64,000 nt of DNA from an uncultured Gammaproteobacteria bacterium (lineage in GTDB: Bacteria > Patescibacteriota > Patescibacteriia > 2-12-FULL-60-25): the NCBI GenBank assembly GCA_964415965.1, contig CAYQCK010000003.1, positions 3,426 through 67,425 on the forward strand, read 5' to 3'. The position numbers and the translations under genes were made by a program. Positions 19,664 to 54,593 of this stretch are shown here, piece by piece; the stretch's first letter is position 1; each line of letters starts with the position of its first letter. The notes under the pieces are model-generated. The model searched no databases. It was not told the DNA's origin and saw only the letters and a list, made by a program, of their open reading frames with translations.

Positions 19664-20497
19664 ATGAGAAAAACCTTCTTATCTTTCGGCCTCGCGCTGA
19701 CCGTCTGCGCGGCCGCCGGCTCGGCTTTGGCCGCGCCCCTGCCCCTTTTACCGGGCAAGACCATCCCTAAGTTACCCACCGCTACCGTCGAACCGATAAC
19801 GGTTCCGGTCAAGGGAGTCGAAGTGACCATCGACCCCTCCCTCTTGCCCGACCTTTCGACCGCCACCACTTCCGGTGGTCCGGTCCAAATCGACCCGGAC
19901 AAGCTTGGCCTGCTCAAACCGTTGCCGCTCGGCGACTTCGTCATCCCGCCAGAGCTCCTGAAAGGACCGCAGATTTCGGCCATCGCGCTCTCGACCGACG
20001 GCAAGCTCCTGCAGGTCTCGTGGACGACGGACAAATCCGCAACCAGCAAGGTCGAATATGGCTCCAATGACACATATGGCAAACTGCTCGAAGACAAGAC
20101 CAAGGCGACCCAGCACAGCCTGCTGATCCCGGTCGCTCCCGGTGAGCTGCACCTGCGCATCTCGTCGAGCGATGCCCTGGGCAAGACCTCCCAATCCGAA
20201 GACATCGCCGTCACCGTCCCGGACATGACGACAGTCGCCCCCGGAACCGCGACCACGACCGATGCCGCCGTGACCACGACCGAGGAAGAAAAGACCGAGG
20301 TCAAAGAGGAGGATACGGCCAAACCCGAAGACAAGCCTTCGGTCAAAGTCGAGCCACCCATGGTCCAGGTCCAAACCGGCCCCTCGACCATGACCCTGGT
20401 CGGCGGTGCCGTCGCCCTCATAATCATCGGCGTATTGGTCGGCGCACTCATCGGCCGCGGGAAGAAAACGTCGGAACCCAAGACAGAACAAAAATAA
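19664..20497 (+). CDS. secreted Fn3-like protein with signal peptide and C-terminal TM anchor
   Basis: Signal peptide MRKTFLSFGLALTVCAAAGSALAAP. Fn3-like block (ISAIALSTDGKLLQVSWTTDKSATSKVEYGSNDTYG). Thr/Glu-rich linker, then C-terminal TM (LVGGAVALIIIGVLVGALIG) followed by a basic tail. Confidence 0.6.
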   Translation: MRKTFLSFGLALTVCAAAGSALAAPLPLLPGKTIPKLPTATVEPITVPVKGVEVTIDPSLLPDLSTATTSGGPVQIDPDKLGLLKPLPLGDFVIPPELLKGPQISAIALSTDGKLLQVSWTTDKSATSKVEYGSNDTYGKLLEDKTKATQHSLLIPVAPGELHLRISSSDALGKTSQSEDIAVTVPDMTTVAPGTATTTDAAVTTTEEEKTEVKEEDTAKPEDKPSVKVEPPMVQVQTGPSTMTLVGGAVALIIIGVLVGALIGRGKKTSEPKTEQK

Positions 20498-20647
20498 CTG
20501 ACGCTGATGCGTTGAAAAACGGCCCTCAACCAGGGTCGTTTTTTGACGACGGCTTGATTTGCGATTTATGTCAAGTTATTGATAGTCATTTTTTTAGCTA
20601 TGTTGACTTATTTATTCAAAAAATGAATTTTTGCGTAAATCCACCCC

Positions 20648-20676
20648 TTGACAAAAGGGCTAAAATATGTTTTAAT
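20648..20676 (+). promoter_or_regulatory. candidate promoter (TTGACA-N17-TTTAAT) in an AT-rich island
   Basis: TTGACA at 20648-20653, a 17-nt spacer, and TTTAAT at 20671-20676, inside a ~150-bp AT-rich tract (20560-20700) in an otherwise ~64% GC region. AAGGAG SD lies 8 nt before the ATG at 20775. Confidence 0.35.
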
Positions 20677-20774
20677 ATCTTGTTCCTTCATAGGCCGTCT
20701 TTCGGCCCCGAATCCTCCCCGCGGCAAGGGTGCCGCCGGGAACCACCACCAACCGTTTGCAAGGAGAACGCGAA

Positions 20775-21833
20775 ATGAACGAGAACCGCATCGAAACCCT
20801 GAAGTCCGCCGTCGAAGCCATCGAGTCGTGCCGTAAGGCCGGCAAGGTGACTCTCGAGGGGATCAAGGCCGTGGCGGCCGCGATCTCCTTGGGCATCCGC
20901 CCGCCGGTCGTGCTCACCGGACGTCAGCCGCTCGTCTGCAAGGACGTGCGCGCCGTCCCGGGCAGCTGGCCGCACTTCGCCCAGGCCCTGTGCAACGCCG
21001 AGGTCCAGAAGCTGGACATGGCGAAGCTCGAGGCCGCGGTGAAGGCTGGCGACGAGACGGCCAAGAAGCGTCTCGGCTTCCTCCAGTACGTGCTGAACGC
21101 GGTGCACGGAGCTCTCCTGAGCTCCCTGCGGCAAAGCGTAGCGCAGAAGGAGGAGGCGGAGGCCGTGGCCAAGCGCCAGGCCGCCAACGCCAAGGCCGAG
21201 GCCGACCGCCGCGCCCGCGAAGCAGCCGACGCCAAGCGCCGCGCCGAACGCGAGGCCCGCAAGGCCGAGCAGAAGGCGGCGCATGACGCCATCCTCGCTG
21301 CCGCGCACGGAGCGACCGCCGCGCCGGAAACGGTGCAGCCCGGCCAGCGCGACCGGCATCCCCGCCTGACCCTCGAGCGCGTCCGCATCCTCCTGGACAA
21401 GGAGTCGCGGAAGCGTGGCGAGGAGCAGGACGTGGATCCGAGCGAGGCCAAGCTGTTGGCGGCGCGCTTCGTCTTCGGACTGGTCTTGAAGACGGAAGCC
21501 GAAGGGAAGCACACCCCGGAAGAGATCGCGGTCATGAAGGCCGAGGTCAAGTCCCTGGTGGCTACCGTGAGGCTCCCGGCCTGCAAGAACCTGGCCGAGG
21601 CGCAGCGCGAGGCCGACGCCTGGGCAGCTCGTGCGGAGTCCTTCGCGCGACGGCAGAACGCGGCTCCCCAGCCTGCGCCTGCCCCCGCGGAAGGATCCGT
21701 TCCTGCCCGGCAGCCGAGGCCCGAGCGCCGCGGCCAGCCCAAGCCCGCCCCGGATGGCCACATCCAGGGAGCCAACGTGATGGAGATCGCGATGGCGAAG
21801 GCTGGGCTCGTCGGCAAGGCGGCCAACGGCTGA
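20775..21833 (+). CDS. hypothetical coiled-coil protein with a Lys/Arg/Ala/Glu-rich repeat region
   Basis: Strong SD (AAGGAG). The central region (AKRQAANAKAEADRRAREAADAKRRAEREARKAEQKAA) is charged alpha-helical low complexity. Confidence 0.55.
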   Translation: MNENRIETLKSAVEAIESCRKAGKVTLEGIKAVAAAISLGIRPPVVLTGRQPLVCKDVRAVPGSWPHFAQALCNAEVQKLDMAKLEAAVKAGDETAKKRLGFLQYVLNAVHGALLSSLRQSVAQKEEAEAVAKRQAANAKAEADRRAREAADAKRRAEREARKAEQKAAHDAILAAAHGATAAPETVQPGQRDRHPRLTLERVRILLDKESRKRGEEQDVDPSEAKLLAARFVFGLVLKTEAEGKHTPEEIAVMKAEVKSLVATVRLPACKNLAEAQREADAWAARAESFARRQNAAPQPAPAPAEGSVPARQPRPERRGQPKPAPDGHIQGANVMEIAMAKAGLVGKAANG

Positions 21834-39315: not shown

Positions 39316-42300
39316 CTACTGCGTCACGCCCAGCTGGAGCGAGCCCTTGAACACGGTCCACGGCCGGAAGCTCTTGACCTTGTCCGCGGACTTGGGATAC
39401 GGGTCGCACATGTTCCTGGTCCGCGGGACGCTCGAGACGTACAGGTCCTGTTTGGAATCGCGGTTGAGCGTCTCGCCGGTGGCGTCGTAGCAGCCGCCGT
39501 ACGGCAGGAGGATGTTGTTCACGCCGGCGAAGCCCATCCCCAATTTGCCGTTCCCCAAGTCCTCGGCGCGGCATTCGCCCGAGCACCAGCCCCAGGCGTC
39601 CTTGATGATGACGCGCGGCGTGAAGCGGCAAGCGTTGTTGGTCTCGTCGAAACAGCCTCCCGGGGGCGCGATGCCGGCCACGCACTTGTCGCCCGGCGCG
39701 CAATCCGTCTTCTCGGTCGCCACGGTGCACTTCTGGGTGTTGTCGCGGTTGCAGTACATCTGGTCGCCGCAGGCCGCCGGTTTCTTGTCCTTGAGGCACT
39801 GGTAGACGTGGGTGTACTCGAAGTAGTTCTGCTCGCAGGCCCGGTCGCTGTTGCCGAAGGTCAGGCGGGGTTGGCACTTGTCGCCCACGTCCAGGCCGCC
39901 CTCGAAGCAATCCTTGTCCTCCACGCACTGGACCGACGGCTTGCTGGCGCAGTAGCTCGTGCTGACGCATTTTCCTCCGGCCGGCGGGCAGTCGTTGTTC
40001 GAGTTGCAGGTGAGTCCGGGCACGAACTCGCACTCCTTGGTCGACCCGCAGATCGGCTTCTTGTTCTTCATCCGGCTGTCATGGAACTCCTGGCTGGTGC
40101 CGTCGCCCCAATCGACCCAGATGTCCTTGATGCCCATCTGGTTGTCGGCCGCCCAGCCGTAGAACTGGATGGTGTTGACCGACTGTCCGCCGATGTACGC
40201 GACCTTGCCTTCGGCCATGCCGTCCAGGGCGAACGTCCCGACCTGCGATATCGGGCACTGTCCGGCCGACGGGCACTGGCGGGTCGTATCCGGCGCCGCC
40301 ATGGTCGGCGGCCGCGGGGCATAATAGGACATGTAGCCGTAGTTAGCCTCGTAAGGCGCCGGATCCTTCTTGTTCTTGTCCGCGATGTACGGCGGCATGT
40401 GCAGGCCGCTGCTCACGTCGGTCGGCGGCAGCCACATCTTCAGGTTGTACGACTCCTCCCCGGACTTCGGCGCCGGGACATTGCCCATGGTCCCCTGGTT
40501 GTTGTAGTCGCGCTGGGTGATGGCGGTCAGGCAGACGGCCTTGTTGAGGTCGTACCCGCACAGGTCGGCCCGGGGATAATAACCCGTGCCGTGGGTACAG
40601 GAGTTGTTGTCCTCGTCCGGGTTGGTCGCGGTCGGCGAACCCTGGTTGTTCTTGGTGGTGCAGTCGTAGTAGGGCGAGTTCGATTTCATCGGGTTGCCGT
40701 TGCCGTCAGACACCGGTTGGCAGAAATTGCTGTCATCACCGGTCACCCACAGCGGCTTGCAGGTGCTGGTCGAGGCGCAGAACATCCCGTCGAACACGCC
40801 GCCTTCGCACAAGCCGGGAGCCATGTCATCCGGACCGCTCCAGCGTATGGCCGTCGATGAGTGGTCGAAATACGGAACGTCGTGGGAGAAGCCGCCGCTG
40901 CAACCAGTTGTATCGCCTCCGAGCTTCGTGAATTCGCCGCACCTCGAAGAAGGCACCGGCAACCTCTCGCAATGCCCCGGAATCACCAACCTTACCCAAG
41001 GCGCTGACGCCGGGAAGGTGTAACCGGAATAGGGTTTGGACACTTGTCTGACGTTCACTACTCCCGGGAATCGTTTGATCGCATCTCCCGGATTTGAGTT
41101 AAGGTCGTACATGAAGTACCGGGTCCCATCCAAGGTATTTCCACCGATGTCTTTCCGCAACGTTTGGCCGTCAGTACCGAACCAACCGTCGGTTGAGTTT
41201 GACGTCCACCAGGGCACGGTTGCGGTATCGAATGACGCTTCAACCGATACGCCGACGCCCCGATACTGCTCCTTGCCGCAACTAGGCGAACCGGGACCGC
41301 ACGGATCATTGATGGGATAGTTGTAGTTCTGAGTGTCCAGATATGCGGGCCAGCTCATCTTCCATCCCGGGGTATGCGGCGTCTGGCCTTTGGACTTGGT
41401 CACCCAGGCATGGTTCTTGGGGAAAGGCATGGCCTTGTTCGGCTGGCCGCCGGCCTTGGCCGAATCCCAGAACCACCAGGTCTGCCACCAGAATGTACAA
41501 TCATAATCCTCATTGCACTGGGCGTTATCATACCCGTTGGTGCACCGATGGGTTGTCTTGTCGCAGACCGAATAACCAGCGCCCTTAGCCGATGGACCGA
41601 CTTCCAGCGGGCAGTCCAAGGACGGCATCCCTTCGCTCGGCTGGCGGCACCAGCCGTTGGTGCCGTCCGGGAACTTGACGCCGGCGTCGGCGCACTTGAA
41701 CGCGCCGGCCTTGGCCGCGGTCTTGCGCTGGACGAACTTCACGTTGCCTTGGGTGCAGCCCGGGATGCCGGCTTCGTTGCAGTCCGCCAGGGCGACCGCA
41801 TCGGTGCCGCTGTAGGCATAGCCGCTGACCGAACCGTCGTCGCCTTTGACTTCGGACCAGCCCGGCGCCAGGTCGCACGGCACGTACTGCGCCTTGAATT
41901 CCCCGTTCACCAGCCTGACCGGAGCCGCGTGGCAGACGTGATAGCCCTCGAGCGTCAGCGAGGCGCTGCACGGCAACCCGGCGTTCACGCCCGAAAGCGC
42001 GTTGCAGAACGCCGAATCGTCGTTGACCACGTCGTACAGCGTCGGGTTGCAGGTGCCGGTGTATCCGCAATATTTCTGGGACAGCGAGGCTTTGGTCGAG
42101 GCGACCAATTCATTCCAGTTTTTCTGCTGCGCGGGCGTCATCGGCTCGGCCGGCTTCGTGATCTTCGAACCGAACTTGGTGTACAGGACGGTCGCGTCGT
42201 CGACCAAGGTCTTGAGGTTGGGGCAGCGCGAACCGTAGTTCGGCCCGGCGATGCAGGCCCACGAGTTCTTGCCGACCGGCATGTCGTGGTACTGGTAGAC

Positions 42301-45300
42301 ATTGTAGATCTTGGCGAAGATGTCGTTGAGATAAGCCCAGTTGCCGAGCGGCATCATGGCCGTCTTGGCGTAGTTCGAACCGCTCGCCAGGAAGGTCGGA
42401 CGGACGCCGGACAGCTTGAACGTGGCTTTGCCGGACAGCGGACCCATCTGGTAGAGGGGATCCTTGCCGATGGCCTTGGTGTGCTTGGCCGCCCCGAACG
42501 GCGGGTTGAGCGTATCGTAGGTGAAACCCAAAGTCGGGATGGAGTACGCCCCGCCGTCCCAAATGCGGTCAGTGAAGGCGGCTGTCTCGTGGGTCGTCGG
42601 CGAGCTCGTGCGCGCCACCTGCTTGCAGATGTCGGCATGGTTCACGTCCAGGTACATGTACATGTAGCGCTCGGTCGTCGCTCCGGGATAGGATGCCGTC
42701 ACCCACCAGCCCACGAAGCGGAACGGGCCGCCCAACTGGGTACCCGACGGATCCATCTTGTTCTCCGGCACCCGGTTATCCTCCGGCGAGGCGTCCTCGA
42801 ACATCGCCCGGATGGCGAAGAACGGCTTCGACGACTCGGATTCGGCGAACATGACGTCGGCCGGGTCGAGTTTGCGCGGCCCGCCCACCGAATCGTCGAA
42901 CGTCCGGAATTTCTTCTGGCCATCGGCGCGCAAGCCCGTCTCCCAATACTTGTAATAGCACAAGGCGTCGCCTTCGCTGTCGTCGCCGTTCTCCGGATAC
43001 TTGCACGGCAGCCTGGCGAGCTTGGTGCCTTTTTCGTTCTTCAAGTAGCCGAAGTTCTCCGAGGTCAACGGCTTGAACTCGGCCATGACGCGGTTTATCA
43101 GGGTCGCGGCCGCGCTGTCCCAGCCCGCGCCGCTCTGATCGACCTTGAACTCGTCGACCCACCAGCCGGATTCGCCGCACGCCCAAGTGCCGCCGACGCC
43201 CGTCTTATACATCGGGTTGAAAACGAAGCTCGTGAAGTTCTGCTCCAGCGCCGCCTTCGCCGTCTTCGGGTCGGTCGAGGTGGCGATCTTGATGTCGTTG
43301 TACAGCCATTGGGCCCACGCGACATCATTGAATTCGATGAAATACTCAGAATAATTGCGGCCCAAACCGCGGCCCGTGGTTATCCAGCGGCCGGCGCGGA
43401 TATCGTTGGCCACGTCGCCGCCGGCATAGGCCATGCGGACGCCGGCGCAATTCGATCCGCTCTCGCCGCCATTGGCCCGCACCCCATCCAAGGTGGCTCC
43501 CAAACCGCAATGAGCCTCGTACCAATCGTCGTCACTGTTCCATGAATCATAACCCCACGGCATGGGATGGTCGTTCACGACGTCCGTGTCGATGACGTAG
43601 CACTCGTGGTAATCGAAGTGGGTGATCTTGCCCGGAGGCGTCTTGACCAACATGGACTTCAGGTCGCCCTCCGGCGGAGTTTTGCATTTGATACCGTCCT
43701 CGCTCGTACGAATGGGATACATCTTCCATTCGCAGATATTGTGGTTGGCCTGCGTCTTCATGGTCCGCGGTTCCCGCGATTTGGACAGGCAGTAGTATTC
43801 GCCGGAGCTGGCGGGCGGCAGATAGCTGGCCGTCGGTTCGTAGTGGTAGCGGTCCTGCTGGCCGGCCAAGACCGGGGCCGGGTTCCAGACCAAGCACGGG
43901 TTCCGGTCCAACGCGCCGCCCAATTTGCGGCTGTAGTCGCGCTGCAGGCACTGGCCGATGACGCCGCGGACAAAGGTGTCCTTGTCCAAAGGCGAACAGG
44001 AACCGGAACGGCACCCGGCCGGCACGATATCCGAACCGGAGATCTTCGACGGGGCGACCGCGGCATCCTGGCCAGCGATGGCCTGCGCCAAGGCGGCGTT
44101 CTGCGAAGCCTGGTCTGCCTGGCCCTGCTTCTTGGCCTGCTCGGCCGCCGCATCCGGATCGCAAGCCTTGCCTGCATCCAATCCGCCGACACAGATGCCT
44201 AGCGGCGCCGTGCCAGCGAAGGCCGAGTAGTACTTCTTCTTGGCTCCATACGACACCTTGCGGTACGAGCAATCGCAATCCTCTCCGTATTCGCAGAATT
44301 CGACCGAATCGTAGCCGTCCAGGAACGTCTTCGGCAACGGCGGATCGACCGTCAAATCCCAATCCTTGATGAATTTGTTGGCGAACGGGGAAGTCGCTTC
44401 GGGATGCGCCCGGCACTCGACGGGCGGATAATGGCGGTTCAGGTTGTTGTCCGTGGCCAGCGACGCGCTCTGTTCGAAGGTCGTCGAGATCTTTTGGGCA
44501 TTGCCGGGCAGTCCCAGGAACTGGCCCAACGCCTCGTTCAGGACGGTCGTGTAGGGCTTCTCGATCGGCAGATAGCAATTCGGCGTCGGTTCGTCCTTGA
44601 TCTTGTAGCCGATCATCCCGGTCTGCGCATGCTTGCACAGGTTGAGGTACGGATAGGCCGTATCCTTGAAATCCACGGCGAACCAGGGTTCGGTGCACGC
44701 AGCTTTGCCGTCGATGCAATCCTGGTTGGTGGCCATCGGCACGGCCGCCACCAGCCGGAACTCGTTGTACAGGGCGTCGCGCTGTTTGCCCGGCCGCATG
44801 AGTTCATACGCCACCCGGCGCATCTGCAGGTCGGACACCTGGAAATGGTTGGGGATGGTGTAGCCCGTGTAGTCGATCGAACCGAAACCCGTGATCCGCT
44901 TGATGTACGAACCGATGTCCGTGAACCGGCCCTGGGCCAGCTGGCTGGTCGGGTCTGACTTGCGGTCCACGTAATGGCCGCAGAAATTCTTGCTGGCCGC
45001 GCCGCCCGCCTGGTCACAGGCCGAGAGGTTGGTGCACAGGTCGATGTACTTCTGCTGGGACGGGTCATAGACCGTCTCGGCCGACGAGCAGCCGAGCCAG
45101 GTCTGGCAATCGCGGTCGAGCTTCACCTTGAGGATGAGGTTGGAGTCGTTGGGACGCGTGCATTTGCCTTGGTATTCCCAGGTGCCGCCCCCGACAGGAC
45201 GCTCGAAAGAGCAATCGTTATCGGTTTTACAGGAGACGTTCTGGTATGCCAGCAGGCCCGGGACGGTTGCGCTCTGGATTTCGATCGGGGCGAATATCCC

Positions 45301-48300
45301 TCCGCCCTGTTGTGTTTTCGGTCGGGCCTTTTGTTCGACGCAGCGCCCGGCATTGACGCAATGTTCGTTGGTCGGGTCGTTCTCGCAGTTGATGGTGCCC
45401 ACCGCCACATCGCCGTCGGCATGACTCTTGGCGTAGGTCGCCGTCGAATTGAACGTCAGCGAGCTGTCGTTCATGTCGCGGAACAGCACGCAGCCCGAGA
45501 GCGGATCCACCTTGCCCTTGCACGATGCCTTGTCCAAGGCCTCGTTGGCGATGAAGAAATACGGTTTGCCTTGCGGATGGGCCTGGTCGCTCTTGTCGCT
45601 CGGGTCGCGGTATTCGGTGCACTCCGACTGCTCGCTCGGGCACAGGTTGACCCAGCCGCGGTAATTCGGGGCGGCCGTGAACTCGGTCAGGAAACTGCTG
45701 CCGCCGGCCTGCTTTTCCGGATAGCACGGTACCGGCGGTTCGGCGCCTTTGACGAACCAGCCCGAATACTCACCTTCCGGATAAGCCGGATTGGCGGACG
45801 CCTTAACCTTCACCTTATCCTTCCATTCGCAGACATGGTCGCGCGGGTCGCGGAAATACGAGGTGACCGGTCCGCTCACGAATTTGTCGCACAACAGCTC
45901 GCTCGGCCGGCACAGCATGTCCGGCTCTCCCCCGCCGTCCACGTATTTCTTGATGTCGTCCTTGAGGTAGACCGTCTCGTAGGTCGAACTCGGGACGCCG
46001 AAGGCGTCGAACGTCGGTTTGCCGAAGGCGCGGCAAGACGCGGCGGTCGCGGCGCAGCGCGTGCTCGGTTCGTCGATGGCGTAGAGGTAGCGGTCGGCCG
46101 GCCGGGTGACGGTCAAGGTGCCGGCGTACAGTTTGTCCCACTGCTTGGTCAGGGTGTTCTGGTCGTAACCCGCCAGCTTGAAGTCGTCGGCATAGGCGCT
46201 GTCCGAATTCCGCGTATCGATGAACGCCGCGCACCCGACCGACTCGTAGCGGCACAACCGGCTGAACTGGCGCAGGTCCACCTTCTTGCCGTTCCGGTCG
46301 CGGTATTCGCGGCAGCCCAACATGGCCTGCGGCAGCGGCACGCCCTCCGGGGTCTGGTCGCATTCGGCCGGGACGGTCCAGGAATCCTTGTTGACGTACA
46401 CCACATCCTGCAGGCGCTGGACGGTTATCTCGTCGAAATAGCTCGGCGACGGCAGGTTGCCGAACGTCAGGGTCTGGTTCGGGCTCCCCATGGCGCGGAA
46501 CGGCCCGAGCTCATAGCGCTTCCAATCGGTGCCGGCCTTGAAACCGCCGGCCGGATTGCCGCCCAAGCTGACAGTCACGTTCTTGCCCGTATTGTCCAGT
46601 GATTTGTACCAGAAGCTGACCGAATACAGGGTATTGGTCGTGGCCGGGAACGTGACATTGAAAGTCGCCGCCGCCACCGCCGACTGGTATTTGAGCGAGT
46701 AGTCGCCGACCATCAGCGCTTCGGGCGAGAAACCGAACGTCGTGCCTTGGCCCGTGACCGAGAACGCGTTTGAGCTGGTGGCGTTGGCGAACGTCTCCTT
46801 CAGGACGACGGTCGTATTGCGGCCGGTCGTGCCCAGGTAGCCGCGGCAGCCGGCATTGACCGCGTCGCACTGGGCGCTTTCGGCCAAGAGCACGCTGTAG
46901 AGGCAGTCGCCGGTCTCGGAGCGGTAGCTGCCGCCGGTCTTGGTGCAGTCGTCGGTGTTGGAATTGTTCTTGCGGTAATCGCGGCAGTCGGCCGACGACA
47001 CCACGGTCTTAGAATAATACGAGTAGAACGCCTTGCCCTGTTCGTCGTAGAACTGGCGGCAGTCCGCATCGGCTTTCGCACCCCAATTGTCGGCGTTGCA
47101 GTCGGCGGAGTTCTTGAGGATGCCGTCAGGTCCGGCTTTCTCGATGTTCAGCGGCGCGTAATGCGGCGTCGGATCGTTGGGGTCGACCGGGGTCGGGTTC
47201 TTGATGAGGCTCCAGGTCTTGAGTTGGTAGCCGGTCGTGTCCGAACCTTCCCAGGTGAAGTACGTCTGGGAATTAGCGTTCGGTTTTTGGCAGGCGCGGG
47301 CATAGGTCAGGTAAGCCACTTCCTCGCCGCCCAAAGCCGCCGCCTCGACGTTCGTCATCCCCTCGCATCCGGCTTGGGCCGCGTTGCAGGCCTGCGCCTG
47401 CTTCGGGATGAAGACGGCCTTGGTGTCGTCCTTCGGGTCATCGAGCGGATCCGCGGACGGCACCGGCGCACCCGTGTTGACCAGGTCGAAGGCCGACGGC
47501 AGTTTCTGGTATTCGGCGTAACCGACGCATGAGTTCGGGCAATAATCGGTCTGCGACAGGATGGCCGGCACTTCGGTCGTGTCGCCCGCCCCGACTTCCG
47601 TATATCCTTGGCAGCCGGCATCGGCCTGGAGGCACATCTTGGCGTAGCCGTCGCACTCCTTGCGGTCGAGCTTGCTGTCGCCGGTGCAATTGAATTCCTC
47701 CGGCGGAAGCTTGATGTGCAACGACGGCAATCCCGGGTTGTTGCCGTCCAGGAAATCGGTCGGGGCGAAACCTTCTTCGAGCTGGACCGCGTCGATGGCC
47801 GCGTTCGTGCCGGCCACCGCAATCTTCGCCGTTTGCGCGTCCTTGTTCGTCAGGAACTCGCAGGTGAAGCGCGTCCAATCGGCGGTCAACCCTCCGGCGC
47901 CGACGTTGGCGCGGGTCTGGGCCGCCCCTCCGGGCGCCCCGACGATCGTCGAATTGCAGTTCGGGCTGCGGTAATAGTTCGTGCCCGCCGCGACATCGGT
48001 CCCCGCCGCATTCAACAAAACCGCGGTCACTGAAGCTATCCCGGCCGGACCGTTGCCGCGGGCATAGAAGGACAGCACGTAATTCCTCAAAGGCTTGACC
48101 TTGACCCTCTGGACCAGCGGCACGACCACCGCGCCGAACGCCTGGCTGCGGCTGCCTTCGAAAGATACATCGCCGTCCTGCGTATCCAGCGCTTTGACTA
48201 CAGCCGGAGCTGACGGGTTCGCGCTATCGGACCAGCCGTCATAATAACCGTCCTGGTTCTTCAGCGTGTCCTCGAACGAACCGTTACGCACCAGGTTCAG

Positions 48301-50454
48301 GGCATTCTGGCTCGGCTGGACGCGCAGTACCTTGGTGCAGCCGTCGCCCGACGCGTCGCATTTCTCGACCTTGGAGTCGAAGTAGACGCGCGGCATCGTG
48401 CCGAGGGTCACGGATTTCTTGTCGGTCGTGGCAGTATTGAGCCATTTCAGGGTCGAGGTCACGGACATGTCGTATTGCGCGGAGTAGAACATGCAGCCGA
48501 CATTGTCCTGGTTGCAGGCGCCGTAATCCACGGAATTGCGCACGTACGACACCTCCGCGCCCTTCTGGTAACCGTCGCTCCGCGATTTGTAGGTCCGGCA
48601 GCTGACGAATTTCTCGTCGCAAGCGTCGGCGCCGAAACGCCAGACCGTCTTCTCGGCCAAGCAGTACCCGTAACCGCCGGTGCAGACGCCCTTGTCGTCG
48701 CGCTTGAGGCACGAGACCGGATCCGCGCATTCCTGCAGGCGGGCGCTCGTGCCTTGGACCATCAAGGTATCGCTGTAGCCTTTCAGCTGGCACTTGAACG
48801 GCGGCGCCGTCAGCACCCAGGCCGGGTCGATCAGGTGGCACCACGGATGCTCGGCATCGAGCTTATTGTCCTTGTTGCAGTCGTTGTAGCCGCGGATGAC
48901 CGTCCCGAGGGTCACGTACTTGCCGCTGTTCTTGATGTTGAACGGGGAATTCGCCGCCAACTCCCAGCCGATGGGCAGGATGCGGGCGAACCGCAACTTG
49001 GCCAGGTTGGAGGCGCAATAGGCGCGCTGATAGCAACCCGGATCCTGGTCGTTCTTGACGTCCGTCGCCGGGATGAGCTCCCAGTCCTTGTGCAGGAATG
49101 CGGCCGGCGCGGCGCCGCCCAGGCCGGCCGCGCGGGACACGGTGTAGGCGCCTTCCGTGGTCGCGTTCTTCACGGCCGAGACCATGCCGTCGTCCATGGT
49201 GCAATGCCAATAACCGCGGTTGTCCGGACAGATCGCCATCTCGGACACGATATCCAGCATGTCCATGGTCACCATGTTCGGCGAGATGATGTCGGTGAAG
49301 GCCTTGGCCCGCGCTTTCTTCGGTTCGGCCGCCTTTTCGGCGTACGGGTTCGTCAGATCCATCTGGTAGTTGGTGTCGTCGCTCGAATCCTCGCCCATCA
49401 GGAAAGCCAAAAGCTTCTGGAGCGCGCCGGTCGCCAAGGTCGAGAGGAAAGCCATGCCGGCCACGACAGGCAGCTGCTCGATGGTGGCCCACATGGCCTG
49501 CAGGGCCATGTTGTTGACCTGGGCGATGGTCATGTCCTTCACCAAGCCGGCTTGGTTGTTCTGCGCGATGGTCTCTTGGATGACGACGGCCGGCGTCTTG
49601 ATTTCAGGGTTGAGAGGGCCACGTTTGACCGTCTTCAGGCCCTTGGTCTCTTGGCGGTCGAGTTCGGCCGCTTTCTGTTCTTCGGACTTGCCGACCAGGT
49701 ACATGCTGTTGACGCGCAAGTTGAAGTCGAAATCGTTGCCGCCGACATCCACGCTCCTGACCATGGCCACGGCGATATCCCGGGGCTTGAGCTGGCGGTA
49801 CATGTTCTCGAAATTCTCCTTGACTCCCTGGAACGTACAATCCGGCCCCGGGACCTTGGCGACCGAGCCGATGCCGAGCGCCAGCTTCATGCCGAAGTTC
49901 GGCTGGGTACACAACCCCAGGCCCCACTGTTTGTCCAACTGGTCGATGAACCGGTTGGTGAATTCCATGCCCAGGTTCTTGACCATGCCCCCGAATCCCT
50001 GGCGCCAAAAAGCCGGCTGGCCGTGCATGCCCTCAAGCACCCACTGGGCCGTCTGCTGGCCGATGGTGATGGCGAAATTGAACAGTACGTCGGACAATGC
50101 CCTGACCACGACCATCTGGAGATAGCCTCCGACTTTCGCGACCTGGCCCTTAAGGACCTCGAAATACTGGCAATCTGGAGCCATTTCTTGCCCAAACACC
50201 CAACTGGATATGCCTCCATACATCCCAGGCATCGATCTAGCCTGCCAATCATACGAACTGCAGACCGGAGTCTCCATCGCGACCTGGGCGATCGCACTGT
50301 AGTCCTCGTCCGCGGCCTTGGCTTCCGGGACCGCTGCGGCCAGCGATGCCGTGACCAGCGAAAGCATGGCCAGCATCATCGAGCCTTTCGCCAACAGGCG
50401 GTAGCATTTTTTCAGGACAGCGGGCATAGCGTTTTTAGGGGTATATTTCGGCAC
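39316..50454 (-). CDS. giant (3712 aa) cysteine-rich secreted or surface protein
   Basis: Single uninterrupted 11.1-kb ORF. N-terminal signal/anchor (SMMLAMLSLVTASLAAAVPEAKA). Well over 100 Cys spread throughout and Gly/Asp/Asn/Thr-rich. No internal stops and the composition is not Arg-rich. Confidence 0.85.
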   Translation of the reverse strand: MPKYTPKNAMPAVLKKCYRLLAKGSMMLAMLSLVTASLAAAVPEAKAADEDYSAIAQVAMETPVCSSYDWQARSMPGMYGGISSWVFGQEMAPDCQYFEVLKGQVAKVGGYLQMVVVRALSDVLFNFAITIGQQTAQWVLEGMHGQPAFWRQGFGGMVKNLGMEFTNRFIDQLDKQWGLGLCTQPNFGMKLALGIGSVAKVPGPDCTFQGVKENFENMYRQLKPRDIAVAMVRSVDVGGNDFDFNLRVNSMYLVGKSEEQKAAELDRQETKGLKTVKRGPLNPEIKTPAVVIQETIAQNNQAGLVKDMTIAQVNNMALQAMWATIEQLPVVAGMAFLSTLATGALQKLLAFLMGEDSSDDTNYQMDLTNPYAEKAAEPKKARAKAFTDIISPNMVTMDMLDIVSEMAICPDNRGYWHCTMDDGMVSAVKNATTEGAYTVSRAAGLGGAAPAAFLHKDWELIPATDVKNDQDPGCYQRAYCASNLAKLRFARILPIGWELAANSPFNIKNSGKYVTLGTVIRGYNDCNKDNKLDAEHPWCHLIDPAWVLTAPPFKCQLKGYSDTLMVQGTSARLQECADPVSCLKRDDKGVCTGGYGYCLAEKTVWRFGADACDEKFVSCRTYKSRSDGYQKGAEVSYVRNSVDYGACNQDNVGCMFYSAQYDMSVTSTLKWLNTATTDKKSVTLGTMPRVYFDSKVEKCDASGDGCTKVLRVQPSQNALNLVRNGSFEDTLKNQDGYYDGWSDSANPSAPAVVKALDTQDGDVSFEGSRSQAFGAVVVPLVQRVKVKPLRNYVLSFYARGNGPAGIASVTAVLLNAAGTDVAAGTNYYRSPNCNSTIVGAPGGAAQTRANVGAGGLTADWTRFTCEFLTNKDAQTAKIAVAGTNAAIDAVQLEEGFAPTDFLDGNNPGLPSLHIKLPPEEFNCTGDSKLDRKECDGYAKMCLQADAGCQGYTEVGAGDTTEVPAILSQTDYCPNSCVGYAEYQKLPSAFDLVNTGAPVPSADPLDDPKDDTKAVFIPKQAQACNAAQAGCEGMTNVEAAALGGEEVAYLTYARACQKPNANSQTYFTWEGSDTTGYQLKTWSLIKNPTPVDPNDPTPHYAPLNIEKAGPDGILKNSADCNADNWGAKADADCRQFYDEQGKAFYSYYSKTVVSSADCRDYRKNNSNTDDCTKTGGSYRSETGDCLYSVLLAESAQCDAVNAGCRGYLGTTGRNTTVVLKETFANATSSNAFSVTGQGTTFGFSPEALMVGDYSLKYQSAVAAATFNVTFPATTNTLYSVSFWYKSLDNTGKNVTVSLGGNPAGGFKAGTDWKRYELGPFRAMGSPNQTLTFGNLPSPSYFDEITVQRLQDVVYVNKDSWTVPAECDQTPEGVPLPQAMLGCREYRDRNGKKVDLRQFSRLCRYESVGCAAFIDTRNSDSAYADDFKLAGYDQNTLTKQWDKLYAGTLTVTRPADRYLYAIDEPSTRCAATAASCRAFGKPTFDAFGVPSSTYETVYLKDDIKKYVDGGGEPDMLCRPSELLCDKFVSGPVTSYFRDPRDHVCEWKDKVKVKASANPAYPEGEYSGWFVKGAEPPVPCYPEKQAGGSSFLTEFTAAPNYRGWVNLCPSEQSECTEYRDPSDKSDQAHPQGKPYFFIANEALDKASCKGKVDPLSGCVLFRDMNDSSLTFNSTATYAKSHADGDVAVGTINCENDPTNEHCVNAGRCVEQKARPKTQQGGGIFAPIEIQSATVPGLLAYQNVSCKTDNDCSFERPVGGGTWEYQGKCTRPNDSNLILKVKLDRDCQTWLGCSSAETVYDPSQQKYIDLCTNLSACDQAGGAASKNFCGHYVDRKSDPTSQLAQGRFTDIGSYIKRITGFGSIDYTGYTIPNHFQVSDLQMRRVAYELMRPGKQRDALYNEFRLVAAVPMATNQDCIDGKAACTEPWFAVDFKDTAYPYLNLCKHAQTGMIGYKIKDEPTPNCYLPIEKPYTTVLNEALGQFLGLPGNAQKISTTFEQSASLATDNNLNRHYPPVECRAHPEATSPFANKFIKDWDLTVDPPLPKTFLDGYDSVEFCEYGEDCDCSYRKVSYGAKKKYYSAFAGTAPLGICVGGLDAGKACDPDAAAEQAKKQGQADQASQNAALAQAIAGQDAAVAPSKISGSDIVPAGCRSGSCSPLDKDTFVRGVIGQCLQRDYSRKLGGALDRNPCLVWNPAPVLAGQQDRYHYEPTASYLPPASSGEYYCLSKSREPRTMKTQANHNICEWKMYPIRTSEDGIKCKTPPEGDLKSMLVKTPPGKITHFDYHECYVIDTDVVNDHPMPWGYDSWNSDDDWYEAHCGLGATLDGVRANGGESGSNCAGVRMAYAGGDVANDIRAGRWITTGRGLGRNYSEYFIEFNDVAWAQWLYNDIKIATSTDPKTAKAALEQNFTSFVFNPMYKTGVGGTWACGESGWWVDEFKVDQSGAGWDSAAATLINRVMAEFKPLTSENFGYLKNEKGTKLARLPCKYPENGDDSEGDALCYYKYWETGLRADGQKKFRTFDDSVGGPRKLDPADVMFAESESSKPFFAIRAMFEDASPEDNRVPENKMDPSGTQLGGPFRFVGWWVTASYPGATTERYMYMYLDVNHADICKQVARTSSPTTHETAAFTDRIWDGGAYSIPTLGFTYDTLNPPFGAAKHTKAIGKDPLYQMGPLSGKATFKLSGVRPTFLASGSNYAKTAMMPLGNWAYLNDIFAKIYNVYQYHDMPVGKNSWACIAGPNYGSRCPNLKTLVDDATVLYTKFGSKITKPAEPMTPAQQKNWNELVASTKASLSQKYCGYTGTCNPTLYDVVNDDSAFCNALSGVNAGLPCSASLTLEGYHVCHAAPVRLVNGEFKAQYVPCDLAPGWSEVKGDDGSVSGYAYSGTDAVALADCNEAGIPGCTQGNVKFVQRKTAAKAGAFKCADAGVKFPDGTNGWCRQPSEGMPSLDCPLEVGPSAKGAGYSVCDKTTHRCTNGYDNAQCNEDYDCTFWWQTWWFWDSAKAGGQPNKAMPFPKNHAWVTKSKGQTPHTPGWKMSWPAYLDTQNYNYPINDPCGPGSPSCGKEQYRGVGVSVEASFDTATVPWWTSNSTDGWFGTDGQTLRKDIGGNTLDGTRYFMYDLNSNPGDAIKRFPGVVNVRQVSKPYSGYTFPASAPWVRLVIPGHCERLPVPSSRCGEFTKLGGDTTGCSGGFSHDVPYFDHSSTAIRWSGPDDMAPGLCEGGVFDGMFCASTSTCKPLWVTGDDSNFCQPVSDGNGNPMKSNSPYYDCTTKNNQGSPTATNPDEDNNSCTHGTGYYPRADLCGYDLNKAVCLTAITQRDYNNQGTMGNVPAPKSGEESYNLKMWLPPTDVSSGLHMPPYIADKNKKDPAPYEANYGYMSYYAPRPPTMAAPDTTRQCPSAGQCPISQVGTFALDGMAEGKVAYIGGQSVNTIQFYGWAADNQMGIKDIWVDWGDGTSQEFHDSRMKNKKPICGSTKECEFVPGLTCNSNNDCPPAGGKCVSTSYCASKPSVQCVEDKDCFEGGLDVGDKCQPRLTFGNSDRACEQNYFEYTHVYQCLKDKKPAACGDQMYCNRDNTQKCTVATEKTDCAPGDKCVAGIAPPGGCFDETNNACRFTPRVIIKDAWGWCSGECRAEDLGNGKLGMGFAGVNNILLPYGGCYDATGETLNRDSKQDLYVSSVPRTRNMCDPYPKSADKVKSFRPWTVFKGSLQLGVTQ

Positions 50455-51259
50455 CCGTCGAAGTCGGCGGCGTGCCCTTCCAATCAGGCTTCAAACCAGG
50501 CTGATCGACTTGGATCGGCGAACTCGTGGAGGTGGTCGTCTGGATTTTCGCGGTCGTGGTCGCAGTCGGCGACTGGGTCGACGGCGGCGTGCTTCCGCCC
50601 GCGCCCAATCCCCTCTGCTGGTCGACGTTCTGGACGGCGGCATCGTAAAGCTTCAGCAACTCCTCGTCCGAGATGCTGTCGATGTCGGTGTCGGGAAGCT
50701 TCTCTTTGAGCAGACGGCGAATGTTAGCCGGGTCGCGCGACAGCATGGCTTGGGCCTGGGCGACGGTATTGGCCGTGCCGCTGCTCATCAGGCCGCCTAA
50801 TCCTCCCTGGAGCGGGCTAGTCTCGCCGGGCAATCCGTCCGAACCGCTTGAGGTCGAGTACACGCCGCTCACATCCAAAGCGCCCGAGCTGTTCGGCGCG
50901 TTCAGGCAACCCAAACCGCGGCGCGTCACCACCCGGACATTGTCCGGGATGCCGTCGCCGCACGTGTCACGGAGGTTCGCGTTCGTATGGTAGACGTTCT
51001 GCTCGTCCCAATTGGACAGACCGTCGCCATCCGTGTCCAGCCGCTTCTGCTGGGCGATCTGTTCCTCGGTCGTCAGGCCGATGAGCTTCTTGGCGTCCGT
51101 GAGCGTGGTCTTCTCGACCAGGAACGGCGCGCGGATCAGGTTATTGATCCGGAACAGCGACAGCCCCAAGGCTGCTCCGGCCATAACGCTAAGCAAGACC
51201 AAGGCCATTTTCTGTTCCTTAGCCAACGCATACCAACGCTCTACAATGTCACGCCACAT
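50435..51259 (-). CDS. membrane-anchored protein with a thrombospondin-type-3/dockerin-like Ca-binding motif; overlaps the giant gene start by 20 nt
   Basis: N-terminal TM (MALVLLSVMAGAALGLSLF). DTDGDGLSNWDE matches the DxDxDGxxDxxE Ca-binding loop. Ser/Thr/Gly-rich C-terminus. Confidence 0.6.
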   Translation of the reverse strand: MWRDIVERWYALAKEQKMALVLLSVMAGAALGLSLFRINNLIRAPFLVEKTTLTDAKKLIGLTTEEQIAQQKRLDTDGDGLSNWDEQNVYHTNANLRDTCGDGIPDNVRVVTRRGLGCLNAPNSSGALDVSGVYSTSSGSDGLPGETSPLQGGLGGLMSSGTANTVAQAQAMLSRDPANIRRLLKEKLPDTDIDSISDEELLKLYDAAVQNVDQQRGLGAGGSTPPSTQSPTATTTAKIQTTTSTSSPIQVDQPGLKPDWKGTPPTSTGAEIYP

Positions 51260-51513
51260 TGCTGTATATCTAGCTCCGAAAGTATAGCATGCCGACGCCC
51301 AAAACGGGAACGCCCCGACCCCGCAGAAATCGCGGACAGCACCACCCTCCGCCCAAACCCGTTCTCCAGCTTCCTCCGAGGGATTTCAATGCCCCTTTTT
51401 CGTACATGCCGTTGGGCACCTGTTGTTCCCTAGCCCAACCATGGATTCCAGCTGGAGTTTACCCCGGCCACCGAGCCGGGGCTGGAATGACAGTAGAGGC
51501 GAAAACGCCCCGT

Positions 51514-51641
51514 TTCGCAAGTGACGCAGGGGGTCTGGGGGGCCGCGCAAGCGTGGCGCACAGAATCACAAAAGCCCGCGACACCGAGAGCGGCATCGCG
51601 GACCCCCAGGACTTTTGCTACTTTTGGTCACAAAAGTAGAT
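51514..51641 (-). ncRNA. candidate structured cis-regulatory RNA element, copy A (of two), in the leader of the TSP3-like/giant-protein operon
   Basis: About 80% identical to 54467-54593. It shares a 9-bp hairpin (CUACUUUUG-N4-CAAAAGUAG) and an 11-bp long-range helix whose differences from the other copy are paired changes that keep the helix intact. Confidence 0.4.
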
Positions 51642-51646
51642 TTAAA

Positions 51647-52018
51647 TCATTCCCCCTCCCACTCTATCGCAATCTTCTGCCCATGCTCACGCACCGGAAT
51701 GCGGATTTCGAGCACGCCGTTCTTGAGCGTGGACTGGGCCGAATCCGTCGCCACCTCGTACGGCAGGACGATCGAACGGCTGAAAGCGCCCCAAAAACAT
51801 TCACGATAGAACCAATCGTCCTCCGGGACTTCCTTGATCATCGAGCGGTGGCCGCGGATGGTAAGCAGGTCGCCATGGATGGAGATGTCCAGATCCTCCG
51901 GCCGCACCCCGGCGACCGTCGATCGGATGACGAGCTCATCGCCATCGCGGAAAACATCGACCGACAGCTGCCCCTCGTTCGAAGGAGCCATCCAATCATT
52001 CGCCGGAAGGATTTGCAT
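51647..52018 (-). CDS. Hsp20/alpha-crystallin small heat-shock protein
   Basis: Alpha-crystallin domain (VDVFRDGDELVIRSTVAGVRPEDLDISIHGDLLTIRG...LPYEVATDSAQSTLKNGVLEIRIP). Start at MQILPANDW. The ORF-track extension to 52105 would encode the palindromic repeats. Confidence 0.85.
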   Translation of the reverse strand: MQILPANDWMAPSNEGQLSVDVFRDGDELVIRSTVAGVRPEDLDISIHGDLLTIRGHRSMIKEVPEDDWFYRECFWGAFSRSIVLPYEVATDSAQSTLKNGVLEIRIPVREHGQKIAIEWEGE

Positions 52019-52059
52019 ACGGCGGAAGTATACCAGAGATTCCGGCATCCCGGCCAAAC

Positions 52060-52262
52060 GCCAGAACTCCGGAGACCCCGGGTCGATGCCCGGGGAATCA
52101 AACACGATAGCTCGAATTCCATTTTTTCTGACATCCCGGCCAAGCGAGGCCGCCGAGCGCGAGCCGGGATCTCTGAACGGAGACCCCGGGTCTCGGCGCT
52201 GCCTCGCCCGGGGTGTCGATAATTACGTCGGCAACCGAAACCCCGGGTCGATGCCCGGGGTG
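52060..52262. repeat. GC-rich palindromic intergenic repeat cluster, locus 2
   Basis: Three copies of (g)aCCCCGGGtcgatgCCCGGGG-like hairpins, plus the ~75-bp TGACATCCCGGCcaagcgaggccgccgagcgcgaGCCGGGATctctg unit shared with 35955-36080. Confidence 0.5.
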
Positions 52263-52295
52263 TTGAATGCTGTTTGGGCGAATGATTATTCGCCC

Positions 52296-54137
52296 CTACT
52301 CCGTTTTCTTGTCTCCTTCGGTCGTCGCCGACAATTTCTCGACGCCGATCAGGCACACGGCCTGCCACGGCCGGTAATGGCTGCGGAAGACCTGCTTGCG
52401 GTCCTCGCCGCCCGGCATCTTCACGGTATAGACGAACTCGGCATCCAGCCCGGTGTGGGCGATTTCGGTGCACTTCTTCTTGCCCGGGGCCAAATCCAGC
52501 GTCTCGACCAGCTTGGTCGGCGGCGGCGCGACCGAATTCCAGGTCCGCGGATAACTGTAATCGCCTTGCCGGCCGTCCGATGTGCCCCAGAACTCGAAGA
52601 ACAGCTCATCACCCTTCTGGAAAGCGTGGATCATGATGGGATTGCCGGTATCGTTCCTGAATTTCAGGTCGGGATGCGGGCCGTAGATGGTGGCGTCGGT
52701 GCCGGGCGGATCGTAATAGCGGACGCGGTACGAATGGTTCTGGCGCTCGGTGATCGGCAGGCCGGATTTCATGGCCCCGCGGAACAGCGTCGTCCCGATC
52801 TGGCAGAGTCCCCCGCCGTACTCCGGTTTGGTCTCGTTGCCCTTGATGACCATCTCCGGGAACCAGCCGTGTTTGCCGTCGATTTCGCCCATGGTATCGA
52901 CCGTCGAGAACTCGGCGCCCGCTTCGATGATGGTGCCGTTAAGGATCTCGATGGCGCGCGCGATGTTCTTGCGGCGATTGGTCGGCGAACCGGAGAAATT
53001 CGAGTACCCCGTGCCGAGCAGTTCCTTGATGCCCATCTTCTGCGGATCCTCTCCGGCCAAAGTCGCCGCGATCTTCCTGACCTGCAACGGGAAAGTCGAG
53101 GTGGCGGGCCATTCGGCCAAGACCGGCTTCAGGGTCGCGTCGGCGTCGATGGCAGAGCCCTCGGTGCCGGCGGTGAAGGACGCGATCTTCCCGTCCTTGA
53201 ATTCCAGGCTGCCCTTCTTGCCCTCTTTCTCGACGCCCGGCGCCGCCGTCTTGATGCCTTCCGCGAACTTCTTGGCGTCGATGGTCAAAGCAAGCTCGCC
53301 GGCCTTGCCCGCGACCCCGATCCAACCGGCCAAAGTCGAGGTCGGGATGGCGTAATTGTTCTTTTCGTAGGTAAATACCAGCTGCGGCCGGTTCAGGAAA
53401 TCGAAGACTTGCGGCATCAGCGGTTCCAGGTCGGCCGCCGAAATCGTCGGCTTCACCGTCCTGACGCTCAAGGCGATCGGCTTGAAATCCAATTTTTTCG
53501 CTTGACGCTCCAATTCATCCATCGCGTTGTCCGTGATGAGCACCTGGCCGCCTCGTTCCGGCTCGATCGAGACCGACGGCCGCGTGCCCGACGGCGCGCT
53601 GATGGCAAGAGCCGCGTCCTTCGCCTCCTTCAGGTCGGATTTGAGGTTCGCCTGCAAGGCATCCACCACAGCCGCCCTGTCGACCGTGACCCGCGCCAAG
53701 ATGTCCATCGGGTAGACGCGCAAACGCATCTGCTCCTGGACGTCCTTGCGCCAACCGTCTTCGCGGCCCAAGCCGTAGGCGACGTCCAACGCCTGGTCGA
53801 CGTCGTAGCGCACCAAATCGCGCGATGCGTCCGGATCGGTCGAAGCGGAAGTGACGTCGAGGGTCACGTCGCGTCCTTGGTAGCTGAAACGCAATCCTTT
53901 GCCCAAGGCGTCGTCGATGGCCTTCTGCACGGTTTGGCGCGCCTCGCTCTTGGTCAATCCGTCGAGCCTGACGCCCAAAATCCTGACGCCCGGGAACATC
54001 CGGTTCTCGTACAGGCGCCCGTAGGCCATCAGCGAACCGGCGGCCATCAAGCAGCCCACGGCCAAGATGCCGACCATGACGTTCGTCCAGACGAGGATTA
54101 TCCTGACCGTCTGGAGCTTCGGATTCTTGCTGGCCAT
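52296..54137 (-). CDS. VanW-family protein with N-terminal TM anchor
   Basis: 613 aa. N-terminal TM (IILVWTNVMVGILAVGCLMAAG). C-terminal VanW domain (EYGGGLCQIGTTLFRGAMKSGLPITERQNHSYRVRYYDPPGTDATI). Confidence 0.8.
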   Translation of the reverse strand: MASKNPKLQTVRIILVWTNVMVGILAVGCLMAAGSLMAYGRLYENRMFPGVRILGVRLDGLTKSEARQTVQKAIDDALGKGLRFSYQGRDVTLDVTSASTDPDASRDLVRYDVDQALDVAYGLGREDGWRKDVQEQMRLRVYPMDILARVTVDRAAVVDALQANLKSDLKEAKDAALAISAPSGTRPSVSIEPERGGQVLITDNAMDELERQAKKLDFKPIALSVRTVKPTISAADLEPLMPQVFDFLNRPQLVFTYEKNNYAIPTSTLAGWIGVAGKAGELALTIDAKKFAEGIKTAAPGVEKEGKKGSLEFKDGKIASFTAGTEGSAIDADATLKPVLAEWPATSTFPLQVRKIAATLAGEDPQKMGIKELLGTGYSNFSGSPTNRRKNIARAIEILNGTIIEAGAEFSTVDTMGEIDGKHGWFPEMVIKGNETKPEYGGGLCQIGTTLFRGAMKSGLPITERQNHSYRVRYYDPPGTDATIYGPHPDLKFRNDTGNPIMIHAFQKGDELFFEFWGTSDGRQGDYSYPRTWNSVAPPPTKLVETLDLAPGKKKCTEIAHTGLDAEFVYTVKMPGGEDRKQVFRSHYRPWQAVCLIGVEKLSATTEGDKKTE

Positions 54138-54466: not shown

Positions 54467-54593
54467 TTCGCAAGTGACAAGGGGGACCGGGGGTCCATGC
54501 TAAGCGTGGCCCGCAGGATAGCCGACGCTGGCGATACCGAGAGCGCATCATGGACCCCCGGAACTTTTGCTACTTTTGGTTACAAAAGTAGAT
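54467..54593 (-). ncRNA. candidate structured cis-regulatory RNA element, copy B, in the leader of the small-ORF/VanW operon
   Basis: See copy A. Here the long-range helix is GGGGGUCCAUG/CAUGGACCCCC and the hairpin loop is UAAC (UGAC in copy A). Confidence 0.4.

Follow-up and report, generated by a model that had tools for sequence, protein, structure and literature searches.

A giant cysteine-rich protein and its membrane partner: a predicted two-gene surface unit of Uhrbacteria-type Patescibacteria

What does an ultra-small bacterium do with a single gene of 11.1 kb? How the Patescibacteria recognize and hold other cells is largely obscure outside a few cultivated Saccharibacteria, and the question is raised in a sharp form by a 64,000-nucleotide stretch of contig CAYQCK010000003.1 (assembly GCA_964415965.1; the whole stretch is called the window below), where the list of open reading frames (ORFs) holds an uninterrupted ORF of this length, with a second ORF of 274 codons directly 5' to it. 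The original prediction was of a giant extracellular protein which forms a surface complex with a calcium-binding membrane protein encoded by that upstream gene. We find that a two-component surface complex is well supported by comparative genomics, that the two genes (jointly, the cassette) appear as a unit conserved across Uhrbacteria-type Patescibacteria, and that attachment to a host cell is a plausible role for their products. The cassette is a concrete candidate for the surface apparatus of an uncultivated lineage.

A conserved pair of genes

Both ORFs are real, and their positions and lengths are those first proposed:

39316..50454, minus strand: giant gene, encoding 3712 amino acids (aa) from a GTG at 50454, or 3703 aa from an ATG at 50427
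39316-39318, minus strand: stop codon of the giant gene
50435..51259, minus strand: partner gene, with an ATG start, encoding a 274-aa single-pass membrane protein with thrombospondin type 3 (TSP3) repeats

The 20-nt overlap that had been claimed between the two requires the giant gene to start with the GTG at 50454, and is lost if translation begins at the in-frame ATG at 50427, which lies 7 nt past the TAA of the partner gene. We consider this ATG, with its product of 3703 aa, the more likely start because that of the closest homolog aligns there. Whichever codon is used, the two genes are tightly coupled and abut each other.

When genomes were scanned at one per GTDB species, 119 relatives of the giant gene came up, and loci were retrieved from 80 of these. 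They belong mostly to Candidatus Uhrbacteria, which the NCBI taxonomy places within the Patescibacteria/Parcubacteria group, with a few from Magasanikbacteria, Falkowbacteria and generic Patescibacteria; some of the metagenome-assembled genomes (MAGs) are evidently mislabelled. This distribution agrees with the small-genome, uncultivated host that had been proposed from the sequence. The cassette is near-universal among the relatives retrieved and occurs once per locus. In 73 of 82 loci a same-strand homolog of the partner gene directly precedes the giant gene, with a gap of at most 20 nt in 57 of the 73; of the nine loci without a partner match, five have almost no upstream DNA. The conserved, same-strand and usually near-abutting arrangement strongly supports the functional two-component unit postulated at the outset.

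An ORF of this size raises the question of whether it could be an assembly artefact, for instance a chimeric join, or else a pseudogene. We identified 48 full-length, intact and colinear orthologs in Patescibacteria MAGs, which range from 2935 to 3784 aa and contain 3.2-5.4% cysteine. These represent 48 independent assemblies with an uninterrupted ORF of similar length, and conservation extends to the very last residues of the protein. Hence, a join or a frameshift-bearing pseudogene is excluded as far as comparative data allow, and we attach next to no probability to an origin of this kind. The nearest publicly available relative of the giant gene (ENA contig_64060, positions 10001-16730) is itself split into called genes of 1050, 514 and 421+ aa, probably through frameshift errors of long-read assembly; giant genes of this family are therefore likely to be under-counted in protein catalogues.

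Even so, the family is extensive. Its profile, searched against 1.84 billion cluster representatives, matched, at E<=1e-30, 1157 clusters (50% identity), of which a good many measure 2900-4463 aa; among ten clusters whose names were looked up, five are called 'hypothetical protein' and five are nameless. A word-indexed protein database yielded only fragments of up to 2269 aa, annotated as hypothetical proteins of Patescibacteria, and no account of the family was found in the searchable literature. Apart from two modules resembling carbohydrate-binding modules (CBMs), it is without a curated Pfam or NCBIfam model. Its breadth, over more than 1000 sequence clusters, is notable, and so is its genomic cost, the cassette taking up ~1% of a genome of ~1-1.5 Mb (a range drawn from relatives' contigs of up to 1.08-1.52 Mb).

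An exported and disulfide-rich protein

The giant protein has a mass of ~400 kDa. It is rich in Gly (9.0%), Asp (7.2%), Thr (6.9%) and Asn (5.2%), as had been observed, though Ala is also high (9.6%) and Ser abundant. Its 143 cysteines (3.85%) correspond to ~70 potential disulfides. In an alignment of 49 sequences, with an overall identity of ~25-40%, 83 of the 143 are conserved in >=90% of the sequences, and the cysteines are far better conserved than the sequence around them. The N-terminus has the hallmarks of export:

50314..50454, minus strand: signal peptide (aa 1-47) that combines basic and hydrophobic parts with a cleavage-type motif in which AKA is followed by AD

Such Sec-type signal-peptide features are present in 47 of the 49 family members. 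No further transmembrane (TM) segment was detected in 48 of them, and a check of all 49 for anchors found no LPXTG sortase motif. The giant protein has no membrane anchor of its own, and its description as secreted and disulfide-rich is borne out by these counts. How organisms that mostly live in anoxic groundwater would form ~70 disulfides is a puzzle.

Domain architecture of the giant protein

The sole recognizable domains of the giant protein are two CBM4/16/22-like jelly rolls, for which we predict sugar binding. They are embedded in an architecture that we delineate as follows:

49255..50169, minus strand: conserved N-terminal helical domain (aa ~96-400), from the family alignment
48628..49254, minus strand: domain with the highest conservation in the family (aa ~401-609), with the motifs LHxDWxLIP and PIGWELAA and invariant cysteines
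47341..48627, minus strand: copy A of an internal duplication (aa ~610-1038), composed of C-x6-C hairpins, a jelly roll and more hairpins
47734..48306, minus strand: first CBM4/9/16-like beta-jelly-roll module (aa ~717-907), from Pfam CBM_4_9 and Foldseek
46009..47106, minus strand: copy B of the duplication (aa ~1117-1482), with hairpins, jelly roll and hairpins as in copy A
46405..46734, minus strand: second, CBM4/22-like jelly-roll module (aa ~1241-1350)
43705..46008, minus strand: conserved cysteine-rich core 2 (aa ~1483-2250), with invariant cysteines
40255..43704, minus strand: lineage-variable region (aa ~2251-3400)
40855-41454, minus strand: hypervariable stretch within the variable region (aa ~3001-3200)
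39319..40254, minus strand: conserved C-terminal domain (aa ~3401-3712), with the motifs VDWGDG, PRVxVxDNWGWCTGxC and the terminal PWxxFxGxIxV

The first jelly roll is seen both by sequence and by structure. The window protein matches Pfam CBM_4_9 (PF02018) with E 5e-5 and 24.1 bits, just below the curated cut-off of 25.9, and nine of 14 orthologs match the same model at E<=0.01 (best E 2.7e-9); Foldseek retrieved CBM16 and CBM4 with E 2e-6. The second is visible by sequence only when the family profile is compared with a CBM4 of the PDB (E 1e-3). Over both, the Foldseek matches comprise CBM16, CBM4 and CBM61, and the predicted jelly-roll fold superposes on solved CBMs. The two AlphaFold models, built from alignments of 18-22 sequences and covering 2213 residues, have a mean predicted local distance difference test (pLDDT) score of 49 and 56 and are confident only in the jelly rolls and a few pieces of ~100 aa. 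All three fold searches, which spanned aa 48-2260, produced CBM-type matches only, and profile searches of the PDB with the N-terminal domain, both cores and the C-terminal domain found nothing besides CBM4.

The claim that the protein has no obvious internal repeats needs refinement. A profile self-comparison with hhalign pairs copies A and B (probability 96%, E 1e-9), which reveals an ancient duplication of ~400 aa. Furthermore, cysteine pairs spaced 6-7 residues apart number 33 against 8.7±2.7 in shuffled sequences, a roughly four-fold enrichment, and a hairpin signature of the form C-x6-[GS]C-x2-[YF] recurs ~13 times within aa 590-1620. That the protein has no recognizable adhesin repeats stands insofar as the window protein and 13 orthologs have no match at E<=0.01 to conventional adhesin or toxin repeats in Pfam or NCBIfam, but it is incomplete in that the two CBM-like modules can be recognized. 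Nor was any enzyme, RHS/YD, cadherin, dockerin, cohesin or SLH family detected in the giant protein (Pfam searches of 14 members; NCBIfam), or any WD40, TPR, saposin, VCBS or FN3 domain in it and its orthologs (Pfam); NCBIfam has nothing for the giant protein. The RHS/YD or cadherin-type protein that might have offered a conventional explanation is accordingly not what this family encodes.

Outside the jelly rolls, the predicted folds are less well defined. AlphaFold2 draws long helices at pLDDT 50-65 in the N-terminal domain, for which profile search of the PDB found no match. Part of the most conserved domain (aa 397-547) is modelled at pLDDT 70-88, with nothing besides CBM in the fold search, and the modelled part of core 2 gave no enzyme fold. 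The C-terminal domain is conserved up to the final residue over its ~310 positions; its WGDG motif (aa ~3449-3454), spotted by eye, brought the PKD domain to mind, an assignment we reject, there being no Pfam PKD match in 14 members and no PDB match, PKD included, for the profile of the domain. A single-sequence match to SMC3 in the PDB (E 0.25) was dismissed as noise. The segment from aa 2250 to 3712, which combines the variable region and the C-terminal domain, measures ~1200-1490 aa in the clade of the window against ~630-1065 aa in the other, and identity in the hypervariable stretch falls to 0.12-0.16 even inside the clade.

The presence of CBMs raises the possibility of a secreted lytic or degradative factor, i.e., a polysaccharide or cell-wall hydrolase with a catalytic domain too divergent to be detected and with the CBMs targeting it to its substrate. 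Modules of the CBM4/16/22 type are classically attached to glycoside hydrolases, as they are among the fold matches, and in predatory Omnitrophota giant genes have been connected with the breakdown of cell walls (bioRxiv 10.1101/2023.11.21.568195). Nevertheless, no catalytic family emerges from Pfam in 14 orthologs or from NCBIfam, none from the PDB profiles of four regions or the fold searches of aa 48-2260, and the invariant residues of the family are overwhelmingly Cys, Gly, Trp and Tyr rather than typical acid/base catalytic pairs. We hold an enzymatic function to be very improbable.

The TSP3 membrane partner

The partner gene specifies a small protein with the following elements:

51152..51208, minus strand: TM segment (aa ~18-36), a strongly hydrophobic 19-mer
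50906..51043, minus strand: TSP3-type Asp-rich loops and a conserved cysteine pair (aa ~73-118)
50639..50722, minus strand: C-terminal helical motif IR..L...G....L....D..L (aa ~180-207), from the alignment

In order, these are the TM segment, two TSP3 loops, the cysteine pair in the form DPNCPxGxxC, a low-complexity linker and the C-terminal helical motif. The strongly hydrophobic 19-mer recurs in 69 of 74 partner orthologs. The first loop has the motif DTDGDGLSNWDE at aa 75-86, the second is degenerate in the clade of the window (RDTCGDGIPDN), and the family consensus reads DTDGDGLSDYDE..TSPYL.DSDSDG..D..E...G.DPNCP.G..C, with D75, D77, D79, E86, D98, D102, D106 and C118 invariant. The upstream gene had been described as encoding a membrane protein with a loop of the thrombospondin type 3 or dockerin kind, and it is the former that prevails: the window protein itself matches Pfam TSP3_bac (PF18884) below the curated cut-off (E=0.003; 17.7 bits against 25), but 28 of 30 partner orthologs match it at E<=0.01 (best E 5.4e-11), whereas neither dockerin nor cohesin was found in any of the 30 or in the giant protein. 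From the DxDxDGxxDxxE motif of the loop we infer that the partner binds calcium. The C-terminal helical motif, in which R181 and D198 are invariant and L184 and G186 nearly so, may be where the giant protein docks. An exact-protein lookup of the partner returned no match, and an exact 48-mer scan of metagenome contigs was likewise empty.

Synteny, evolutionary rate and the envelope

In the close clade the order of genes is fixed as SMC, VanW/PG_binding_4, HSP20, partner, giant and NusA. The rest of the window is given over to housekeeping functions, namely aminoacyl-tRNA synthetases, KsgA, Upp, Sua5, a release factor, GroEL, RbfA, a DHH phosphoesterase and 16S rRNA. With all neighbors being housekeeping genes there is no prophage context, and the giant protein has no match in PHROGs; on these grounds we discard a giant phage fiber or tail protein. 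Two proteins encoded near the cassette are possibly related to the envelope:

33373-34944, minus strand: Wzy_C (O-antigen ligase-like) membrane protein
52296-54137, minus strand: VanW/PG_binding_4 protein, VanW being syntenic in 23 loci

Within the syntenic block the giant and partner proteins diverge fastest, and their identities covary across loci. With respect to the related locus L003, the giant protein is 53% and the partner 48% identical, as against 62-89% for VanW, DHH, SMC, HSP20 and NusA. Fast divergence is the usual pattern of exposed surface proteins.

This context bears on the main rival to an attachment function, in which the giant protein is a structural component of the envelope such as an S-layer-like coat, a sheath or a wall-spanning scaffold. 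Its jelly rolls would then bind the wall glycopolymers of the cell itself, the partner would serve as a tether, and the role of the complex would lie in cell integrity or shape rather than in host contact. The near-universal presence of the cassette in a single copy per locus, its strongly conserved cysteines and core domains, its constant place among the housekeeping genes of the close clade, the share of the genome spent on it and the Wzy_C and VanW/PG_binding_4 proteins encoded nearby would all be at home in such a scenario. Less so would be the lineage-variable and hypervariable distal region, which is unexpected in a purely structural lattice, as is the fastest evolutionary rate in the neighborhood. 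Further, Pfam detects no SLH, CWB or other wall-binding domain in the window protein or its orthologs. The S-layer proteins known so far tend to be far smaller and poor in cysteine, and the size and cysteine richness of the giant protein set it apart from them. We regard a structural role as unlikely, if deserving of serious attention.

In ten loci of the distant clade, the gene directly 3' of the giant gene and on the same strand codes for a protein of 740-1085 aa with 7-9 TM helices at its N-terminus and a long hydrophilic tail (e.g., L063:19496-22039, L081:10364-13174 and L070:18599-21529). This hints at another role for the giant protein, as the extracellular arm of a type IV secretion-like or contact-dependent transfer apparatus that bridges to the host for uptake or delivery of macromolecules. 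One of these neighbor proteins has a near-full-length match to TrbL/VirB6, which is sub-threshold (E 2e-4; 21.6 bits against a cut-off of 25.9), and a type IV secretion system is essential for the epibiotic growth of a cultivated Saccharibacterium (PMC10633639). However, the TrbL match was obtained with just one of nine neighbor proteins, the profile of the polytopic neighbor has no PDB relative, and no VirB4-type ATPase occurs among the loci examined. Moreover, the polytopic gene does not lie beside the cassette in the window or in its closer relatives, and the 64-kb window has no homolog of it. A transfer function is, in our estimate, improbable.

A model for the surface complex

We propose that the cassette encodes a disulfide-stabilized, glycan-binding surface complex, held by the partner, which attaches the ultra-small cell to a host or partner cell, and we see the case for this reading as evenly poised. 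In this model, the ~400-kDa giant protein would be exported, oxidatively folded and retained at the cell surface by the membrane partner, which might contact its N-terminal domain via the C-terminal helix and/or the calcium-loaded TSP3 loops. The disulfide hairpins would stiffen the elongated body, and this rigid, disulfide-stapled body would hold the jelly rolls and the variable distal region away from the cell, where they could bind glycans on another cell or surface, with attachment to a host or partner as the outcome. Precedents exist among other Patescibacteria: polysaccharide-binding envelope proteins are essential for the epibiotic growth of a cultivated Saccharibacterium (PMC10633639), and giant surface proteins of Vampirococcus were inferred to mediate host attachment (PMC8080830).

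Several considerations weigh against this model. The physical interaction between the two proteins is deduced from synteny. About half of the 2213 modelled residues have a pLDDT of <50 and the last ~1450 residues lie outside the models; a functional domain, catalytic or otherwise, may thus have escaped detection. The fold matches include structural or receptor jelly rolls that do not bind glycans, such as the receptor-binding domain of CDTb and the reelin repeats. Finally, the occurrence of the cassette once per locus, its deep conservation and its housekeeping surroundings look more like a core structural element than a fast-switching adhesin.

A bolder version of the attachment model would see in the cassette a lineage-defining contact organelle of Uhrbacteria-type Patescibacteria, a rigid, calcium-tethered and disulfide-laddered stalk amounting to a new interbacterial junction rather than a simple adhesin. 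The stalk would be made of folds not seen elsewhere, namely the N-terminal helical domain, the PIGWELAA domain and the arrays of C-x6-C hairpins, and in some lineages it might act together with a VirB6-like membrane protein to bridge to the host and move material across. We deem this quite unlikely.

Regulatory elements and other features of the window

Two candidate signals flank the cassette:

51281..51289, minus strand: extended -10-like sequence TGcTATACT, 22 nt upstream of the ATG of the partner gene, read by eye
39271..39297, no strand assigned: 12-bp G+C-rich hairpin between the stop of the giant gene and the convergent gene at 38468-39217 (plus strand), from a pattern scan only

The former is a possible promoter of the operon, though a consensus promoter scan did not return it; the latter, in a window of ~62% G+C, is likely to be a bidirectional terminator. 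The convergent gene that shares this hairpin encodes a 249-aa protein with no Pfam match and has a homolog in only five close loci, at 31-44% identity.

A structured RNA element had also been placed in the leader of the operon, but the comparison with related loci does not tie it to the cassette. Two repeat copies (51593-51641 and 54545-54593) are 90% identical over 49 nt and share the hairpin CTACTTTTGG(T/C)..., also written CTACTTTTGGTCACAAAAGTAG; the first sits in the gap that separates the partner gene from the HSP20 gene (51647-52105), and the second is upstream of VanW. None of 82 related loci has the hairpin, which is therefore specific to this genome and no conserved element of the cassette. 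Short palindromic units like CCCCGGGCATCGACCCGGGGT also recur in the VanW-HSP20 spacer (52080-52270, minus strand); they look like intergenic repeats of the repetitive extragenic palindromic (REP) type.

Elsewhere in the window we observed the following:

17735-19240, minus strand: complete bacterial 16S rRNA gene (1443 bits)
30708-33293, minus strand: 861-aa protein with a match to the Major Vault Protein 'shoulder' domain (PF11978, E 2.6e-11), a domain unusual for a small-genome bacterium
537-1397, minus strand: 286-aa protein with ankyrin repeats (E 8e-8), here a patescibacterial instance of a eukaryote-like interaction domain
11622-16511 (minus strand) and 19513-21761: run of ORFs of 292-456 aa without a Pfam match, typical of the uncharacterized content of this lineage

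Comparison with known systems

The closest parallels, compared here by description, are with other Patescibacteria: Vampirococcus lugosii has ten giant surface proteins of 1392-4163 aa (PMC8080830), and Southlakia epibionticum has essential glycan-binding envelope proteins (PMC10633639). Like these, the giant protein belongs to an ultra-small-genome member of the group, is very large, exported and multi-domain, carries interaction or glycan-binding modules and has a proposed role in host attachment. It differs from them in its Uhrbacteria lineage, its architecture, the extreme number of conserved cysteines and the obligatory TSP3 partner.

Among domain-level analogies, the usual proteins with CBM4, CBM9, CBM16 or CBM22 differ from the giant protein in that its modules are set between disulfide hairpins with no catalytic domain found attached. 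The cellulosome, with its dockerin and cohesin, resembles the cassette in pairing a short, duplicated, Asp-rich calcium-loop segment, here in the partner, with a giant CBM-bearing extracellular protein, and this likeness suggests calcium-dependent tethering at the cell surface. Yet the loops are of the bacterial TSP3 type rather than dockerins, and the protein that bears them is a membrane anchor and not cargo. The TSP3 repeats of the partner also give a weak local match (E 1.8e-5, aa 73-130) to MtsD of Myxococcus, which acts in cell-cell cohesion (NCBIfam NF047639); at 23 bits against a cut-off of 800, the partner is not an equivalog, and the repeat alone is common. The repeats of reelin, an animal extracellular matrix protein, are unrelated in sequence, the giant protein's disulfide modules are not EGF domains, and the similarity is one of convergent architecture at most. 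Taken together, we group the cassette with the giant surface proteins described from ultra-small symbiotic bacteria; it offers structural work several extracellular domains that appear to be new, and its pair of genes can serve as a marker of the lineage.

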